From assembly GCA_031441445.1 (NCBI GenBank), contig GCA_031441445.1_4353.1: DNA of 24,085 nt, one strand, 5' to 3'. The position numbers and the translations under genes were made by a program. This document shows, piece after piece, positions 2,929-20,972 of the stretch. The notes beneath the pieces are model-generated. The model had not been told where the DNA came from and did not search any database. It was given only the letters and a program-made list of their open reading frames with translations. This DNA comes from a phage. Position 1 is the stretch's first letter, and each line of letters starts with the position of its first letter.

Positions 2929-4179
2929 TTAAAGTGCGAAAGTCACCGGGATGTTGATTACTGGTTTAACCACCGGCATCTCATAAACTACAGGATAGCC
3001 GAGAGCATCAGCCATATGGTCAATGACGCCGTCTTTAGCCGGCTCTCCGTTATCGTCGTATGCCTGCTGTTCCAGCGTCTTGGCTATCTCAGGACATAAG
3101 TGGTCATTAACCCACAGCTTACCTTTTTCCAGCGCGGTGTTCACGGCTAAAACGCGGTCTTTAACCGGGGGGTTGGCTGATTTAGCGCGAACATCGAAAC
3201 CCGCCTGCTGGAGTAATGCAATATCAGAGATTGACGCCGAGTTTGTCTTACGGTTCTTGCCGCTAGCGTCGGGGTAAACGACGATGCGGTGGCCTTGTGA
3301 CTTCCACTTCTCGGTAATTACGCGCACGGTGTCCGGCGTATCGAACAGGCCCTTCAGTTCTGCAACCGCGTGCCATCCATCTTTACGCTGCACATACACG
3401 GCGCTGGCGTTCTTCGTAACGTTGAAGTCCTGCCCGATGTACAGCGTGTCGCCCGGTTGAATTGTCTCTTTGCTGCGGTGCTTGCGTCGGTCGTATGCGT
3501 AATACACGCTTCCGGATGTCAGGTTGACAAACTCACCGTTCAGATACGCGTTAATCAGTTGCGCCGGGTAAGTCTCAGTCAGCGAGCTAATGTAATCCGG
3601 CGGCAGGAATCTGGCGTTCTCGTGAGTGGACGCCTGCACCATTGAGTAACTCGGCGTCGGGTTCTCCTTGAACTTGGCGTAAACGAACTTGAACCCTTCC
3701 GGAGTCGTGGTGACGGAGATGTGGTTAATTACCCCCGGGATAACCAGACGCATGCGGGCTACGATTTTGTACCACGCCAGCTCGGCTTTCTCACGGCTCA
3801 ATACGTCCAGCTCATCCACGACCGCAGCCGCGATTTTGAAGCCGACTATCGAGCCGGGGTTATCCATCGAGCGGCAGATAACAGTTCCGAGCACCGTCTT
3901 ACCGCGAGTGACCACGACTTCTTTGTCGCCAGATTTAACCAGCACATCGAGGCCGAGGAGGTTAGCCGCTTCCTCGAATGTCGGGTAGAAGATGTCGCGG
4001 ATAGCCGGGTAGGTGGGGCCGAAGTAGCCCAGGCGGGTACCCGGGTTCCGGAGCATGAACGTAAGCAGGTCGAGACAGCCGACAAATGTCTTGCCGCTAC
4101 CGAAGCCTCCGACATAGGCCTTGTATTTGTTATCGCAATTCAGGAACAGTGCCTGTGGTGCGGATAGCTGAATACTCAT
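2929..4179 (-). CDS. terminase large subunit
   Basis: 416-aa ORF with Walker A (YVGGFGSGKTFVG) and Walker B-like (AAVVDELDVL) motifs; ATG overlaps stop of upstream small ORF (ATGA); GAGGTAGAGGA RBS. Confidence 0.8.
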   Translation of the reverse strand: MSIQLSAPQALFLNCDNKYKAYVGGFGSGKTFVGCLDLLTFMLRNPGTRLGYFGPTYPAIRDIFYPTFEEAANLLGLDVLVKSGDKEVVVTRGKTVLGTVICRSMDNPGSIVGFKIAAAVVDELDVLSREKAELAWYKIVARMRLVIPGVINHISVTTTPEGFKFVYAKFKENPTPSYSMVQASTHENARFLPPDYISSLTETYPAQLINAYLNGEFVNLTSGSVYYAYDRRKHRSKETIQPGDTLYIGQDFNVTKNASAVYVQRKDGWHAVAELKGLFDTPDTVRVITEKWKSQGHRIVVYPDASGKNRKTNSASISDIALLQQAGFDVRAKSANPPVKDRVLAVNTALEKGKLWVNDHLCPEIAKTLEQQAYDDNGEPAKDGVIDHMADALGYPVVYEMPVVKPVINIPVTFAL

Positions 4180-5028: not shown

Positions 5029-5259
5029 TTACAGCTCTACGGATGCCAGATGACTGACTGCGGCTTTAACCGCATCTTTAAGGTTGTCATACGCGGAAGT
5101 AAAAGACGTATGCGCGCCTTTTGAGACAACTGTAGCGCCGCCGTTAAAGTACGCTTTTGCTCTCCAACTACCATTTACCTTGTCAATAAGGATGTAGTGG
5201 CTACCTTCTTCCGTTACCGTAACTGTGTTTTCATCGATTACTTCAAATTTAGTATCCAT
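5029..5259 (-). CDS. hypothetical protein (76 aa)
   Basis: ORF with GAGAGAG RBS, preceded by the cassette promoter at 5305-5333; last gene of the minus-strand early operon. Confidence 0.5.
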   Translation of the reverse strand: MDTKFEVIDENTVTVTEEGSHYILIDKVNGSWRAKAYFNGGATVVSKGAHTSFTSAYDNLKDAVKAAVSHLASVEL

Positions 5260-5304: not shown

Positions 5305-5333
5305 ACTATACTAGTGAACTATTCACGCGTCAA
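5305..5333 (-). promoter_or_regulatory. early promoter with operator-like palindrome (TTGACG-N17-TATAGT, minus strand)
   Basis: -35 is rc of 5328-5333, -10 is rc of 5305-5310; the spacer contains TGAATAGTTCACTAG, a near-perfect copy of the recurring AATAG-N4-CTATT palindrome. Confidence 0.5.
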
Positions 5334-9759: not shown

Positions 9760-9791
9760 TTCGTTTTCCTCTGTCTCGTCTGTGTAAATGA

Positions 9792-9820
9792 ATAGTAGCC
9801 TATTCTATCTTAGTGTGCAA
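9792..9820 (-). promoter_or_regulatory. early promoter cassette (TTGCAC-N17-TACTAT, minus strand) with operator palindrome
   Basis: -35 is rc of 9815-9820, -10 is rc of 9792-9797; palindrome AATAG-TAGC-CTATT at 9791-9804 overlaps the -10; whole cassette to the ATG is homologous to the one at 11022-11090. Confidence 0.5.
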
Positions 9821-11024: not shown

Positions 11025-11058
11025 TTCTAAATTCCTTATGTCTCGTTTCGATAAGTGA

Positions 11059-11087
11059 ATAGTAACCTATTATGTTGGGGTGTGCAA
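11059..11087 (-). promoter_or_regulatory. early promoter cassette (TTGCAC-N17-TACTAT, minus strand) with operator palindrome
   Basis: -35 is rc of 11082-11087, -10 is rc of 11059-11064; palindrome AATAG-TAAC-CTATT at 11058-11071. Confidence 0.5.
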
Positions 11088-11129
11088 GAGAATAGTTACG
11101 TTGCCGTTGTGATTCTTTCGTTTCTTAAA

Positions 11130-11185
11130 AGAGTACGCAACGCAGTGGGTGGGCGTTAGCCCACCCCAGCGGAGTGAAGTACTCT
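11130..11185. other. nested inverted-repeat element in the divergent intergenic region
   Basis: Inner perfect 8-bp GC-rich stem GGGTGGGC / GCCCACCC (11147-11154 / 11159-11166, GTTA loop) nested in an outer 7-bp stem AGAGTAC / GTACTCT (11130-11136 / 11179-11185). Confidence 0.4.
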
Positions 11186-11421
11186 CTACCTTGCTCACGG
11201 CAACTATAGAAACTTTTAATTATCAGTGACTTGGATATTTAGGCGGGATTAACAATAGACTTTGACCCTTCCGAAAGCGTCAGCGGAACTACACTCAAGT
11301 GCCTAATGGCACGCGTTGCGTTCCCTGCCGCTCCGCGGTCGCTTGCGATATCTCACAAGCTCAGTGAAGCTTAGCATATTTTCAAGTAAAAGTCAATACC
11401 AGTAGCATCTTTTGTATTTTA

Positions 11422-11461
11422 GTAACTTTGCGTGGTGTTTTGGTTGCTTTTACAAAGTTAC
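11422..11461. promoter_or_regulatory. perfect 9-bp inverted repeat upstream of the AlpA-like gene
   Basis: GTAACTTTG (11422-11430) / CAAAGTTAC (11453-11461) separated by 22 bp, 41-80 nt upstream of ATG 11502. Confidence 0.35.
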
Positions 11462-11501
11462 CGCCTTATACTTCGATACATATTACACAGGAGAGCGCGA
11501 G

Positions 11502-11672
11502 ATGACTATCAATGAAGTTGCAGAATTAATCGGCGTCACCCGCCAGACGATCAATAACTGGATTAAGAGTGGAAAGTTTCCTGATTGCAGCGTTAAAGTA
11601 ATGGGGCGCCGTTTACCAGGAACATTTGACCGTAATAAAGTTGAAGCGTGGATTAAGGAGAACGTGAAATGA
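11502..11672 (+). CDS. AlpA/excisionase-like helix-turn-helix DNA-binding protein
   Basis: ORF track 11412..11672; ATG at 11502 with AGGAGA RBS preferred. 56 aa with the HTH signature MTINEVAELIGVTRQTINNWIKSGKFP. Confidence 0.65.
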   Translation: MTINEVAELIGVTRQTINNWIKSGKFPDCSVKVMGRRLPGTFDRNKVEAWIKENVK

Positions 11673-12016: not shown

Positions 12017-14302
12017 ATGTCCGATGTAATTTTATCCTACTCGTGGTCACGCCGCAACGCGCGGGCGGGAAAAAAGGATATAAATGTCAGAACCGCACAC
12101 ACGGCAACACTGGACGACCTGAAAGAGTTAATCCAGCCGCTCGATGCCGTTCGCGACGGGATTAACCCTAAGACCGCGCCCGGTTATATCACCGCCGCGT
12201 GCGACTCAACGCACAGCACCGTAAAAGACCCGGAAACTGGAGACTTTAAGCAAGCGCGTAAAGGTTTTTTCTACCGCTGCGATGCGTCTGTAAGCAAATC
12301 GTCGCTGGCCTATCTGGATTTCGACAGCACAACACCGGAAGAGTATCAGGAAGCGGTGCGCCTGGTTAAGCGCAGCCGCTGGGCCATGTGCCTCTATACC
12401 ACGGCATCACATACTGATGAGTCACCGCGCTTTCGCGTCGTAATGCCACTGGCCCGTCCGGTGGAGGGTGGTGACATCATCCGTGTTCGTCATGGGTTGC
12501 TGGAGCACTTCTTCAAAGGCATGGGTGCGGACCGCAGCGGGTTCACTCTGTCGCAGCCGATGTACCTGCCGCCGGTCGGCGCTACCGTTATCTGGTCGCG
12601 CCGCAACGACCTGATCGACCCGAACGAGTTACTGGAAGGCATCCCAGCCGTTGACGTTAGCAGCGCATCGGATTACCAGATACCGGAAGAACTGCGCACC
12701 GCGTTTACAGACGCGTTTGAAGCACTGGCGTTTGAGTACGGCGGCGTCATGACGCCGCGCGGCCTTAAGATGCCAGCCACACCGGAACATGCCGAAAACT
12801 ACAGCGACCCGACACCGCGCCCGGACGACTTCCTGCTGTGCTTCCCGCGCGAGGGGTATGAAGCGCCAAACGTAACCATGATTCACGACACAGACATTAC
12901 GGCGACAGAAGGCCTGTCACCGAAAGAGGTGTGGAAGTACGCGTGCGATGCGACCGGGCTGCCGTTCAGTGAAGTCGCAGAGGCCATCGGTTGGGGGGCG
13001 CGTGAATCTGTCTCATGCAGCCTCGACGACCTGGAAGACGACGAGGACTCAGAGGAGGACGAGTTACCAGAACCGGTAAAGGCTGATTTCGTCGTTGAGG
13101 GGTACATGCCGTCGGATTGTATCTGGGATATTGTCGGGGAATCCGGCACGTACAAATCATTCTATACGCTGGGGATGATGTACCTGAGCGCCGCCGGGTA
13201 CCGGTTTGCGGGGGCTGACACCCAACGTTGCCACCATTTCTATATTGACGGCGAGGGTGGTGCAGCTACACGAACACGTATTGATGCACTCGCGGCTAAA
13301 TATGGCGAGGAAGGTAAAGATTATGTACATGTCATCGATATGGGCGAAATACTCGCTACGCATGGTGATAAAAAAATTCCAGCTCTAATCCGCAGGATGC
13401 GCGAAACCGCAGGGGATGAACCTATTGGCATGGTTGCCTTCGACACCCTTAACCAGACGCTGGCCCTGACGATTGATAAGTTCGACGAGAACAGTTCATC
13501 AACGGCAATCGGTATGGGTAAAGTTATCGCCATCCTGAAAGAAGTGCGCGATGCAACTAAAGCCGCTGTCGGTGTCGTTCACCATACTCCGAAGGGCGGA
13601 AAGAAAGCCCGCGGCAGTGGAGCATTGTATGCGGGTGTCGACGTGGAACTGACAATCGAACGCGCTACCGACCGTCAGATAAACGTATACCACTCTAAAT
13701 TTAAGCACGGTCCGCAACAGAAGACGGTTGGCATGGTACTGGAGTCTGTACAGTTCCGTGAAGCACCGCCGCCGAAAGAGTACCGCGCGGTTGAGTTCCT
13801 CGGTAGCACAGAGGAATACGGCACAATAGTAAACCTCGACCTGCCTGAGCCGCACAAGGCGCTTGTATTGATGCCGTGGGGCTTCGAGCCGTTCAAAACT
13901 GACGAGGAGAAAGAGAGGGAAGAAGGGTTAACTAACGAAGGTAAACAAAATGTACGTAAAACCATAGAGAACGCCGTCAACAGTTCCGAGGCCACGATAC
14001 TCGCGGCGTTTGAACTGGCGGAGGGGACCTACAACGGCAACGAGGGCATCACGGTATCCGCAGCGAATAAGCTCGCGCAGTCTGACCCCAACGCAAAGGC
14101 GTTTAACTCCAAAGAAGCCATAGAACGCGGGAAGATTAAGAAAATGGTTGAGGCTGGGTATCTTGTTCCGGGTACTGACGAAAACAATCAGATAATCCCA
14201 GGCCGTTACAGACTGAACACCATGATAACAGATAACAAGATTCCGAAGACAATATACGAACCGAATGAAATGCTGACAGTGACCGAGGAGGATTTGGAAT
14301 GA
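12017..14302 (+). CDS. bifunctional DNA primase/helicase (AEP-type primase-polymerase N-terminus fused to RecA-like ATPase)
   Basis: 761 aa. N-terminal AEP motifs LAYLDFD (DxD) and TTASHTD (sxH); acidic linker DDLEDDEDSEEDE; C-terminal Walker A GESGTYKS and H-motif VGVVHHTPKG; GAAGGAAA RBS. Confidence 0.7.
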   Translation: MSDVILSYSWSRRNARAGKKDINVRTAHTATLDDLKELIQPLDAVRDGINPKTAPGYITAACDSTHSTVKDPETGDFKQARKGFFYRCDASVSKSSLAYLDFDSTTPEEYQEAVRLVKRSRWAMCLYTTASHTDESPRFRVVMPLARPVEGGDIIRVRHGLLEHFFKGMGADRSGFTLSQPMYLPPVGATVIWSRRNDLIDPNELLEGIPAVDVSSASDYQIPEELRTAFTDAFEALAFEYGGVMTPRGLKMPATPEHAENYSDPTPRPDDFLLCFPREGYEAPNVTMIHDTDITATEGLSPKEVWKYACDATGLPFSEVAEAIGWGARESVSCSLDDLEDDEDSEEDELPEPVKADFVVEGYMPSDCIWDIVGESGTYKSFYTLGMMYLSAAGYRFAGADTQRCHHFYIDGEGGAATRTRIDALAAKYGEEGKDYVHVIDMGEILATHGDKKIPALIRRMRETAGDEPIGMVAFDTLNQTLALTIDKFDENSSSTAIGMGKVIAILKEVRDATKAAVGVVHHTPKGGKKARGSGALYAGVDVELTIERATDRQINVYHSKFKHGPQQKTVGMVLESVQFREAPPPKEYRAVEFLGSTEEYGTIVNLDLPEPHKALVLMPWGFEPFKTDEEKEREEGLTNEGKQNVRKTIENAVNSSEATILAAFELAEGTYNGNEGITVSAANKLAQSDPNAKAFNSKEAIERGKIKKMVEAGYLVPGTDENNQIIPGRYRLNTMITDNKIPKTIYEPNEMLTVTEEDLE

Positions 14303-14613
14303 ATATTTACGATTTTATAGATAACCCGTTTAAAGCAGTGAAGGCAGGATACCGCCCGTCATACCTGACATGTGTTTCCGCTGTAAGCAACAACTGGTGG
14401 ACTTTTTGTGTGTATGCAGCGGGGATTTTTGCGGAGTTTAAAGACATTTTAGACATGACGCTGGCAGAGATTATAAAGTGCCTTTTCAAATTAATTATAT
14501 CGATAACTATTGTTATAAGTTTTCCTGTAAGTGCGTGGTTTCTCGCCTGGATTCAGTACCTGAACGTGCAACACACTATTAAGAATTTGGAAGAACTCGA
14601 TAAGTTGCTATAA
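14299..14613 (+). CDS. small membrane protein (two predicted TM segments), low-GC moron candidate
   Basis: 104 aa; ATG overlaps primase-helicase stop (ATGA); hydrophobic stretches WWTFCVYAAGIFAEF and LFKLIISITIVISFPVSAWFLAWIQYL; visibly AT-richer than flanking genes. Confidence 0.55.
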   Translation: MNIYDFIDNPFKAVKAGYRPSYLTCVSAVSNNWWTFCVYAAGIFAEFKDILDMTLAEIIKCLFKLIISITIVISFPVSAWFLAWIQYLNVQHTIKNLEELDKLL

Positions 14614-14618
14614 AAAGA

Positions 14619-14637
14619 AAGGGGCTTTAAGCCCCTT
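14619..14637 (-). terminator. terminator hairpin for the XRE gene (possibly bidirectional)
   Basis: 7-bp stem AAGGGGC / GCCCCTT around loop TTTAA; the XRE stop codon (14627-14629) lies in the loop; followed on the minus strand by UCUUUUU. Confidence 0.5.
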
Positions 14638-14842
14638 CACCTAACGCCAGCCACTTGGCGTCTACTTCCAGAACTTCCGCCAGTTTGAACAGCGTTGCCG
14701 GGCGGACGTCCTGAGTTACTCCAAGTGCCAGTTGGTTAATCGCGCCCTGGGAAACGCCGGTCAGGGCCGCCAAACGGCGCTGGGAGATGCCGAGTTCTTT
14801 ACGGCGTTGTTCTACACGGGTGCCTAGTTCAGATGGTTGCAT
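14627..14842 (-). CDS. XRE-family (Cro/CI-type) helix-turn-helix transcriptional regulator
   Basis: 71 aa with HTH_3 signature GISQRRLAALTGVSQGAINQLALG; AAGGAG RBS; the only minus-strand gene inside the plus-strand module, with its own promoter and terminator. Confidence 0.8.
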   Translation of the reverse strand: MQPSELGTRVEQRRKELGISQRRLAALTGVSQGAINQLALGVTQDVRPATLFKLAEVLEVDAKWLALGEGA

Positions 14843-14872
14843 GTCAGTTACTCCTTAGTCAGTTGATATGTG

Positions 14873-14886
14873 AATAGTACCATATT
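14873..14886. promoter_or_regulatory. operator-like site O1 overlapping the XRE promoter -10 (AATAG-TACC-ATATT) with extended -10 TGGTACTAT
   Basis: Imperfect copy of the recurring palindrome; minus-strand TGnTACTAT (rc of 14874-14882) serves as an extended -10 for the XRE gene; the -35 is poor. Confidence 0.45.
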
Positions 14887-14906
14887 AATTATTTTAGAAA
14901 AGCCCA

Positions 14907-14935
14907 TTGACATGTGAATAGTTCGCTATTATAGT
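14907..14935 (+). promoter_or_regulatory. early promoter cassette (TTGACA-N17-TATAGT) with operator palindrome
   Basis: -35 14907-14912, -10 14930-14935; palindrome AATAG-TTCG-CTATT at 14917-14930 in the spacer; drives the operon starting at 14964. Confidence 0.55.
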
Positions 14936-14963
14936 TAGCCCATACCAAACGAGAGGGGCAGAT

Positions 14964-15191
14964 ATGAACACAATCACTGGGGCCATAGCTAAAGGTTTTC
15001 GAGCAATTTTCGGCGCTCCGCAAGAAGTGTGCACAAAACATAAATTTGTACTTTCTTGCGTAGTAGGGGATGAGTTTGATGGGTTCGATAAACTTGTTGT
15101 CTGTGACCATTGCGGGCAAGAAGCTATTCAACACTCAAACGGTAAATTTGAACTAATAGACGATAGCCTTACTGAAGGCGACGGTGAGTAA
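14964..15191 (+). CDS. hypothetical small Cys/His-containing protein (possible zinc-binding)
   Basis: 75 aa with C-x3-H ... C-x2-C pattern (CTKHKF...CDHCG); GAGAGGGG RBS. Confidence 0.45.
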   Translation: MNTITGAIAKGFRAIFGAPQEVCTKHKFVLSCVVGDEFDGFDKLVVCDHCGQEAIQHSNGKFELIDDSLTEGDGE

Positions 15192-17531: not shown

Positions 17532-17560
17532 TTGACACCTGAATAGTTAGCTATTATAGT
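17532..17560 (+). promoter_or_regulatory. early promoter cassette (TTGACA-N17-TATAGT) with operator palindrome
   Basis: -35 17532-17537, -10 17555-17560; palindrome AATAG-TTAG-CTATT at 17542-17555; drives the SSB gene. Confidence 0.55.
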
Positions 17561-17615
17561 TCTAATCACTGGCCGGGCAGCTCCCGGAGTAAACTGAAAA
17601 CTGAGGAATCGAGAA

Positions 17616-20698: not shown

Positions 20699-20972
20699 GG
20701 GGCGCATACAGAAATACGCAAAAGAGCGATTCGAGGCCCTCGGTGGCCTCGTTCGCAAGCTCTCCTACGAAGGACGTTCCGGCGCTCCCGACCTGCTGGT
20801 AATTCTCCCCGGCGGTATCATCTGGTTTGTCGAGGTTAAGAAAGACGAAAACACGAAGCCAGACCCGCACCAGTTACGTGAGCATGAGCGGATGCGTAAA
20901 CGCGGTGCAAATGTTTTTGTCGTTGGTTCGTTTAAACAGGTTGACGACCTAATAGCAAACTATTATAGTTAG
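20685..20972 (+). CDS. VRR-NUC domain nuclease
   Basis: 95 aa with PD-(D/E)XK core GAPDLLVILPGGIIWFVEVKK; GTGAGGGG RBS. Confidence 0.7.
   Translation: MSTPEGRIQKYAKERFEALGGLVRKLSYEGRSGAPDLLVILPGGIIWFVEVKKDENTKPDPHQLREHERMRKRGANVFVVGSFKQVDDLIANYYS
20941..20969 (+). promoter_or_regulatory. early promoter cassette (TTGACG-N17-TATAGT) with operator palindrome, inside the 3' end of the VRR-NUC gene
   Basis: -35 20941-20946, -10 20964-20969; palindrome AATAG-CAAA-CTATT at 20951-20964; downstream leader matches the cassette at 14930-14945. Confidence 0.5.

Follow-up and report, generated by a model that had tools for sequence, protein, structure and literature searches.

A 434-Cro-like protein and a palindrome embedded in promoters suggest a one-repressor regulon in virulent Kagunavirus phages

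In temperate phage 434, the Cro protein acts with CI on two tripartite operators (OR1-3 and OL1-3), and the individual operators are 14 bp long with conserved outer bases and a variable centre. The networks of mycobacteriophage L5 and Streptomyces phage phiC31 maintain lysogeny, and the L5 sites are asymmetric and lie largely within transcribed regions. Cro-like regulators are also encountered in virulent phages derived from temperate ancestors, where they are usually read as one-locus remnants of a lysogeny module. Here we describe a 71-residue XRE/Cro-like regulator (hereafter XRE) and a 14-bp palindrome, AATAG-N4-CTATT, in a 24,085-nucleotide stretch of phage DNA (GenBank assembly GCA_031441445.1, contig GCA_031441445.1_4353.1). 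This whole stretch is referred to as the window, and positions are window coordinates unless stated otherwise. On balance, the 71-residue protein appears to be a 434-Cro-like single-domain repressor that autoregulates and damps most of the promoters read by the host RNA polymerase in a virulent Kagunavirus. The best reading of the locus, in which binding is something we infer, is a one-repressor regulon and not a bistable CI/Cro switch.

The window is about half of a genome of Kagunavirus (subfamily Guernseyvirinae, lytic siphophages), because it aligns to Kagunavirus genomes of 41-45 kb at ∼90% identity over 70-78% of its length. A total of 118 phage records match the region at 80-99% identity, nearly all of them from E. 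coli Kagunavirus. Gene context was taken from the annotation of Bas70, a complete relative with a 43-kb genome that is 99% identical at the XRE locus.

The XRE gene (14627..14842, minus strand) is monocistronic, and its product has the size, the domain profile and the predicted fold of 434 Cro. Pfam HTH_3 (PF01381), a helix-turn-helix (HTH) profile of XRE/Cro-CI type, matches residues 11-65 (E = 3.9e-13; 49.6 bits versus a cut-off of 23), and the protein aligns end to end with both 434 Cro and the N-terminal domain of 434 cI (E about 5e-6). In Foldseek alignments, the identity with 434 Cro is 38-40% over 62-68 aligned positions, and the two proteins have a C-terminal WL..G motif in common. Gln32 opens the recognition helix of XRE and aligns with Gln28 of the 434 repressor. 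A glutamine at this position is present in both 434 proteins, Cro and cI, and none of the seven phage homologues in the comparison departs from it. The AlphaFold2 model (predicted local distance difference test, pLDDT, 84) contains five helices (residues 5-17, 21-28, 32-39, 48-57 and 62-66), the second and third making up the HTH, and matches 434 Cro, P22 c2, SinR and C.BclI at template modelling (TM) scores of 0.75-0.83, with HipB also matched at ∼0.8. A protein of 71 residues with a single HTH domain is indeed too short for a CI-like cleavage domain, as a prior reading of the sequence without database searches (the sequence-only reading) had pointed out.

The gene is found in 489 phage records, at 90-99% identity within Kagunavirus and 35-49% in Jerseyvirus and others. 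Judged from the Bas70 annotation, in which it is the sole credible opposite-strand gene, XRE is the only minus-strand gene of the replication block. It carries its own intrinsic terminator (14618..14638, minus strand), in which CTTTTTAT comes after a 9-bp stem with a loop of 3 nt, and which folds as RNA at -14.7 kcal/mol (z = -1.97). The UAA of the loop is the XRE stop codon (14629-14627). Both of these features had been noted in the sequence-only reading. On the plus strand the terminator lacks a T-tract, and read-through from the helicase-primase operon could therefore give RNA antisense to XRE. In RNA-seq data from Kagunavirus vB_Eco_K1B4, an HTH-domain gene, _008, a possible XRE orthologue located three genes after the AAA-domain gene _005, is among only four early-peaking genes (PMC12645636), which would agree with early expression of XRE.

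Upstream of XRE, a 121-bp spacer holds back-to-back promoters, a TG-extended -10 facing leftward and TTGACA-N17-TATAGT facing rightward, just as had been proposed. The rightward promoter, P_R (14907..14935, plus strand), would serve the recombination/replication operon. It has 11 of 12 consensus matches, is among the two best sigma70 matches in 20 kb, and its hexamers are both essentially invariant in 35 relatives. The leftward promoter, P_L (14874..14882, minus strand), reads TGGTACTAT and has no usable -35, which is why a consensus scan did not list it. Promoter alignment identifies it as a weakened copy of a second promoter class, since its bases line up one to one with those of the TTGCAC-N17-TACTAT promoters at 11058, 9791, Bas70 5138 and Bas70 14242, and also with TTGCGT-N17-TACTAT at the same place in Jerseyvirus. 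The consensus scan also returned a competing match, TTCACA-16-TAAAAT (14918..14891, minus strand), as an alternative or additional leftward promoter for XRE. It is retained as the less likely, uncertain candidate, with a -35 that is variable among relatives and nothing corresponding to it in Jerseyvirus, as against four paralogues for the TACTAT promoter.

Each promoter overlaps a copy of the palindrome, with centres 44 bp apart, also as proposed. In 16 of 35 relatives, an extra base brings this distance to 45 bp. The site in P_R, here called O_R (14917..14930), is a perfect AATAG-TTCG-CTATT that fills the spacer of the promoter and touches its -10. The site in P_L, called O_L (14873..14886), reads AATAG-TACC-ATATT, matches at nine of ten arm positions, and covers the -10 of the XRE promoter. 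One arm of O_L reads AATAT for AATAG, and the same G-to-T change creates the TG of the extended -10. In a spacer alignment of 35 distinct Kagunavirus contigs, all 20 arm positions of the two sites (ten in each) are invariant. The 4-bp centre of O_R is variable, including at positions 14924 and 14925, and reads TTCG, TTCA, TTAG, CTAG, TTTG or CTCG, and the linker between the P_R -35 and the arm varies as well, with a 1-bp indel. The conserved element is AATAG-N4-CTATT, with the extended form TGAATAG...CTATTCA. Invariant arms, a variable centre and a position within the core promoter fit the binding of a dimer to putative operators of ∼14 bp. Overall, spacer pairwise identity is 95.1%, as compared to 82.6% at third codon positions of the XRE gene, which argues that the spacer is under selection as non-coding DNA.

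Two other elements of the spacer were considered and rejected. A 25-nt direct repeat (14863-87 and 14907-31; spacing 44) is not conserved as a whole, as relatives have only the core TGAATAGT-N3-mTATTA in common and the TTGATA of the first copy is not strictly conserved. Likewise, TTGACATGTGAA, a near-palindrome over the P_R -35 and the only one flagged by the scan within the repeat, was discarded as an operator because its ATGTG part varies and carries an indel among the 35 relatives. The P_R cassette of promoter, leader and Shine-Dalgarno sequence (TATAGTTAGCCCATACCAAACGAGAGG, 14945-14964) is near-invariant, and some Jerseyviruses share the leader. The first gene after this cassette varies, with at least five unrelated starts (MNTITGAI, MLEKFLVLL, MTNNRKAK, MAKRKDYD and MKFRVDMQ), and the site directly after the ribosome-binding site looks like a recombination junction.

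The palindrome extends well beyond the XRE locus. Five perfect copies of AATAG-N4-CTATT are present in the window versus 0.01 expected, and nine sites have at most one mismatch versus 0.56 expected (maximum of 3 in 200 shuffles). A search with AATAG-N4-mTATT gave 18 strand hits versus 2.1 expected. In an unbiased count of all 5-N(2-8)-5 palindromes, the same sequence ranks first in the window (five copies; null maximum 2) and in Bas70 (seven perfect copies; null maximum 3). In Jerseyvirus it is at the top with four copies, tied with its own extension TAATA-N6-TATTA. This is the arrangement of many copies of one site over a phage genome that is known from L5 stoperators and phiC31 CIR sites. 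Every good site falls within a promoter that opens a gene cluster, in one of two fixed registers, and together these sites cover at least seven sigma70-type promoters on both arms of the genome.

In the class R register, TTGACr-N4-AATAG-N4-CTAT-TATAGT, the palindrome fills the promoter spacer and abuts the -10, with sites at 14917(+), 17542(+), 20951(+) and 5310(-). Besides P_R, the candidate class R promoters are located at 17532..17560 (plus strand; perfect palindrome 17542-17555, conserved in Bas70) ahead of the single-stranded DNA (ssDNA)-binding protein gene, at 20941..20969 (plus strand; TTGACG-17-TATAGT, perfect palindrome 20951-20964) ahead of 21003 and the helicase genes, and at 5305..5333 (minus strand; TTGACG-17-TATAGT, 9/10 palindrome 5310-5323) ahead of a 76-residue gene, terminase and portal. 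In the class L register, TTGCAC-N10-AATAGGnTACTATTCA, the -10 TACTAT lies within the palindrome, with sites at 11058(-) and 9791(-) and, in the XRE promoter, at 14873(-). The two other class L promoters of the window, both TTGCAC-17-TACTAT with perfect palindromes, are the first promoter of the leftward arm (11059..11087, minus strand; palindrome 11058-11071, conserved in Bas70) and one ahead of small genes, holins and endolysin (9792..9820, minus strand; palindrome 9791-9804). The four class R copies carry one mismatch in 40 arm positions versus 12 in 32 linker and centre positions. The same pattern is seen between orthologous sites of the window and Bas70, where arms are kept and centres differ; the Bas70 counterpart of the 20941-20969 promoter, for example, has identical arms and another centre. 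In Bas70 the palindrome is found in all seven strong intergenic promoter candidates whose -10 is TATAGT or TACTAT, and in the -35-less XRE promoter; two other strong intergenic candidates are without it.

Three observations concern individual sites. A palindrome-like site conserved in Bas70, TATAGTATGCTATT in minus-strand reading (1391-1404; Bas70 3335-3348), follows directly on a terminator hairpin (1409-1424) in the interval that separates the portal gene from the head-morphogenesis gene, and combines a -10-like hexamer with a near-operator and no -35. In Bas70, two near-identical class L promoter-palindrome cassettes (TTGCACACCCCAATATAATAGGGTACTATTCA) at 5138 and 14242 drive small opposite-strand gene islands inside the structural gene block, which suggests that accessory cassettes travel with, or acquire, a regulated promoter. 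In the 5' leader of the ssDNA-binding protein gene, a hairpin, CCGGG-cagct-CCCGG (17573-17587), has flanks (CACTGG...AGTAAACTGAAAA) that are conserved in Kagunavirus and SE1. Its stem and 5' flank are also found in Jerseyvirus, its loop varies, and it might be a translational operator or processing signal.

The comparison of lineages within the Guernseyvirinae bears on whether regulator and site belong together. In Jerseyvirus, AATAG-N4-CTATT is enriched in the same promoter registers, with P_R and P_L back to back. In Pantoea phage AH01, whose XRE is 43% identical, the enriched palindrome is AATAC-N4-GTATT (five perfect copies). The copy in P_R is perfect and the one in P_L imperfect, and further copies occupy other promoters in the same registers. 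Both arms have changed in parallel at every AH01 site, with concerted changes in the bases next to the -10. Kagunavirus, Jerseyvirus and AH01 all have the weaker site, with one imperfect arm, in the promoter of the regulator itself. Operator spacing in these three lineages is 44/45, 55 and 65 bp, roughly the same helical phase, albeit with three data points only. The palindrome network is demonstrated, from sequence comparison, in three lineages and not for the whole subfamily, and a simple residue-to-base code from the XRE helix to the half-site is not claimed. Gene order differs between lineages, with XRE heading the helicase-primase operon on the same strand in SE1, AH01, 37P2 and TS33. In Kagunavirus and Jerseyvirus the helicase-primase operon is inverted, is headed by an HTH_17 gene, and converges on XRE.

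Taken together, these features suggest a simple mechanism. Host RNA polymerase would transcribe XRE early from its weak promoter, which has a TG-extended -10 and no -35, and XRE dimers would then bind the 14-bp palindrome. At the perfect sites in P_R and other promoters, bound dimers would be expected to occlude RNA polymerase, because the palindrome sits inside the core promoters. Because the P_R site is perfect and the site in its own promoter weaker, P_R and the other promoters would be damped first and XRE last, with the weaker O_L filled at the end to cap XRE itself. The outcome would be negative feedback on, or temporal down-regulation of, phage transcription during lytic growth, which is the job of Cro without a CI partner. 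The sequence-only reading had considered an early-to-middle switch run by a Cro-like protein in a virulent phage. The Cro-like regulator and the virulent host phage both stand, and a local device is too narrow a description for a palindrome found in at least seven promoters. Since the site also precedes lysis and packaging units, global throttle may be the better description.

Several points weigh against this account. The binder, the repression and the physiological role are what we infer, and the identity of the binder comes from association. No binding, footprint, transcription-start or mutant data were found in the literature for any member of the group. The AlphaFold2 model was made from a single sequence. 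Class L promoters are weak by consensus, with about 7 of 12 matches. In SE1, Klebsiella phage 37P2 and Hafnia phage TS33, the unbiased count shows no enriched perfect palindrome, and the sites in promoters show no more than a loose resemblance (roughly ATTAs-N4-sTATT). The palindrome also stands in promoters ahead of lysis and packaging genes, and simple early shut-off does not explain how late genes escape. An Ant-type antirepressor has been reported for a Jerseyvirus (PMC9409062), and none was found among 20 window open reading frames (ORFs) scanned against PHROGs.

Of the competing explanations, the one that survives best, and that we nevertheless consider unlikely, holds that the operators are real and bound by a host transcription factor or another phage protein, which would leave XRE with some other target or with autoregulation only. 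Small uncharacterised genes are abundant on both arms, and a second HTH protein, the HTH_17 protein (11502-11672; annotated in Bas70 as 'excisionase and transcriptional regulator'), comes first in the other rightward operon. This protein was rejected as the binder because it has no detectable homologue in AH01 or SE1, and AH01 has the palindrome network. XRE is the sole DNA-binding gene found in all lineages examined, and it is located between two of the sites, including the one in its own promoter. Nor would a host factor account for the change from AATAG to AATAC, which does not simply follow the host: AATAG is shared by E. coli and Salmonella phages, and the XREs of AATAG and AATAC phages are 42-48% identical.

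We find it improbable that the common sequence merely reflects a family resemblance of duplicated promoter cassettes, or a spacer element related to RNA polymerase, with no dedicated regulator. Such an origin would account for a motif that always occurs with a promoter and in just two fixed registers, and the promoter cassettes do seem mobile, with class L promoters driving the opposite-strand islands among the Bas70 structural genes. Substitutions, however, are concentrated in the linker and the 4-bp centre and spare the two 5-bp arms. This is the signature of a dimeric HTH site and would not be expected of drift following duplication, and the arms in AH01 have changed in parallel at every site. 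Sigma70 is not known to make a sequence-specific demand on these spacer positions. Because the palindrome is shifted by 6 bp with respect to the -10 between the two classes, the palindrome and not the promoter geometry would be the conserved unit.

Less probable again is a concentration-dependent dual regulator like the C proteins of restriction-modification (R-M) systems, or an activator of the weak class L promoters. The top Foldseek match of the XRE model is C.BclI, with C.AhdI near (TM 0.77-0.80), and class L promoters, weak by consensus, might need help. Against this stands the location of the site centres at ∼-18.5 (class R) and ∼-12.5 (class L) from the inferred start, atop the -10 and spacer. 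From this geometry, a bound dimer should block polymerase and not recruit it, and untwisting of the MerR type would be needless because the spacers already have the optimal 17 bp. The XRE gene is moreover monocistronic, with its own terminator and no nuclease after it, and its sites are spread over at least seven promoters, with neither the nuclease co-transcription nor the paired C-box of an R-M C protein.

A lambda-like CI/Cro switch, possibly with a lysogeny module outside the window, was the starting proposal of the sequence-only reading. What remains of it is a Cro-sized XRE repressor beside divergent promoters with a common palindrome; bistability falls away, with no second repressor and one operator per promoter. 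No integrase is present in the window, as had been stated, and none is annotated in the complete genomes of Bas70, AH01, SE1 and 37P2, where the locus is also without a second repressor. Relatives differ in their first rightward gene, for which at least five different genes were seen, and the first three here (orf75, orf166 and a 90-residue ORF) have no Pfam domain match and no recognisable DNA-binding domain. A comparison of the 11.9-kb replication module with 5,426 complete E. coli genomes gave no match, and in a word-indexed protein search, which returned close relatives (at least 77% identical) only, none of the contigs with close homologue clusters exceeded 45 kb. Among 185,579 species genomes (one genome per species), a single XRE match was obtained, on scaffold22 (18,987 bp) of Taishania pollutisoli, a Bacteroidota isolate assembly. 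It has 48% identity, the same as that of Jerseyvirus XREs, and probably comes from contaminating phage DNA and not from a prophage. In the literature these phages are described as lytic (PMC9787291, PMC12919940, PMC7412135). An unseen lysogeny module is therefore rejected in view of the integrase-free complete relatives, the lack of an E. coli genome match and the confinement of homologues to contigs of at most 45 kb, and the virulent phage that had been named as the other option is upheld.

The bistable switch is thus largely refuted and very improbable: divergent promoters that each carry a copy of the palindrome beside a Cro/CI-family HTH gene do speak for it, as do the nearest relatives outside the subfamily, which are longer, apparently CI-like repressors (their translations run past the 100 residues read) facing a divergent small, cro-like HTH gene, but the locus has neither two antagonistic divergent repressors nor a CI-type C-terminal domain, integrase/attP and prophage copies are lacking as are shared tripartite operators, the first rightward gene varies with no Pfam domain in the first three, homologues are confined to short contigs with one match in the species genomes, and the palindrome is found at seven or more promoters and not at one locus.

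The remaining gene content agrees with a two-armed organisation. The leftward arm runs from ∼11.1 kb down to 0.3 kb and contains small genes, an HNH nuclease, two holins, endolysin, terminase and portal. The rightward arm (∼11.5-23.3 kb) encodes the small HTH_17 protein, the helicase-primase, a PD-(D/E)XK/DUF2800 exonuclease, an Enc34-type ssDNA-binding protein, a family A DNA polymerase and a helicase. No phage RNA polymerase or sigma factor was found among the genes examined here, and Rfam and tRNA scans of the window gave no match. A non-coding stretch of ∼430 bp (11072-11501) separates the arms. It contains a GC-rich hairpin, GGGTGGGC-GTTA-GCCCACCC (11147-11166), and a weak rightward promoter candidate, TTGCTT-17-TATACT (near 11446-11474), without the palindrome, and its Bas70 counterpart has a strong TTGAAA-18-TATAAT match. 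The stretch, which has no Rfam match, could hold a replication origin or other cis elements. Between the helicase-primase and the XRE terminator, a hydrophobic 104-residue ORF (14299-14613; phrog_2638, weak DUF4750 match) looks like an accessory insertion. It is not present in Bas70 or most relatives, and megablast coverage mostly starts at query base ∼192-212 (window ∼14591-14611).

Few phages are isolated, and put forward for use against E. coli and Salmonella, as often as the Guernseyvirinae (Kagunavirus, Jerseyvirus and relatives), and the small size of their genomes suits them to synthetic biology (PMC11990801). Annotations of the 'transcriptional repressor' gene in this group are inconsistent (DicA, Cro, repressor or hypothetical), and papers list the gene without comment or say that no repressor is present (PMC9787291, PMC12919940). 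No description of the operator network or functional test of the XRE protein was found in the literature, of which the subfamily-defining paper (doi 10.1007/s00705-015-2344-z) was outside coverage. If our reading is true, the XRE gene and a 14-bp site would explain how transcription is organised in a virulent phage whose genes, as far as examined here, include neither an RNA polymerase nor a sigma factor, and would provide a defined, portable promoter-operator cassette in two strengths. Removal or overexpression of a single 71-residue protein would alter expression of the whole phage, and a safety question would be settled, as the repressor gene would be no sign of lysogeny. Because almost every host-polymerase promoter carries the putative site of one small repressor, a single protein could also silence and release the whole programme. 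Such a non-integrative pause, be it dormancy or a carrier state when cells are not growing, gene-dosage compensation during genome replication or superinfection exclusion of relatives by the repressor, is a speculation to which we give little credence. In the case of superinfection exclusion, the AATAG and AATAC half-site types would be immunity groups, and a pause of any kind would concern a family that is regarded as strictly lytic and has been widely put forward for therapy and food biocontrol.

Set beside the known systems, XRE is closest to 434 Cro. Both are 71-residue single-domain proteins with the five-helix XRE fold, alignable end to end and equipped with the recognition-helix glutamine, and both are associated with a 14-bp operator (here putative) of conserved outer bases and variable centre that overlaps core promoters, including their own. 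Here, by contrast, there is no CI and no lysogeny, each promoter has one site, the half-site is AATAG and not ACAA, and the sites are dispersed, from at least seven in the window to about nine in the Bas70 genome. With the OR switch of lambda CI and Cro, the locus shares a divergent pair with operator copies on each promoter, a small HTH gene and the geometry of negative autoregulation. It differs in that an antagonist repressor, a cooperative three-site operator, integrase or attP, and prophage copies are all missing, and its operator centres are 44-45 bp apart, each operator serving its own promoter. Like L5 gp71 with its stoperators and phiC31 with its CIR sites, one small repressor would here serve many scattered sites and many transcription units; unlike theirs, the sites are symmetric and in fixed register in promoter cores, and the phage is virulent, with no lysogeny functions or prophage copies through which such a regulon could serve prophage immunity. 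The C proteins C.BclI and C.AhdI (TM 0.77-0.80) are likewise small XRE proteins; they work as dimers on palindromic boxes in their own promoters and have a part in timing gene expression after cell entry, but they are co-transcribed with a nuclease and use a paired C-box at one promoter, whereas XRE is monocistronic with dispersed sites. Finally, XRE resembles the cro-like regulators of other virulent phages in being a Cro/CI-family HTH gene without an integrase, and is set apart from them by its conservation across a virulent subfamily (489 records) and by probable sites that are integrated into the promoter set of the phage.

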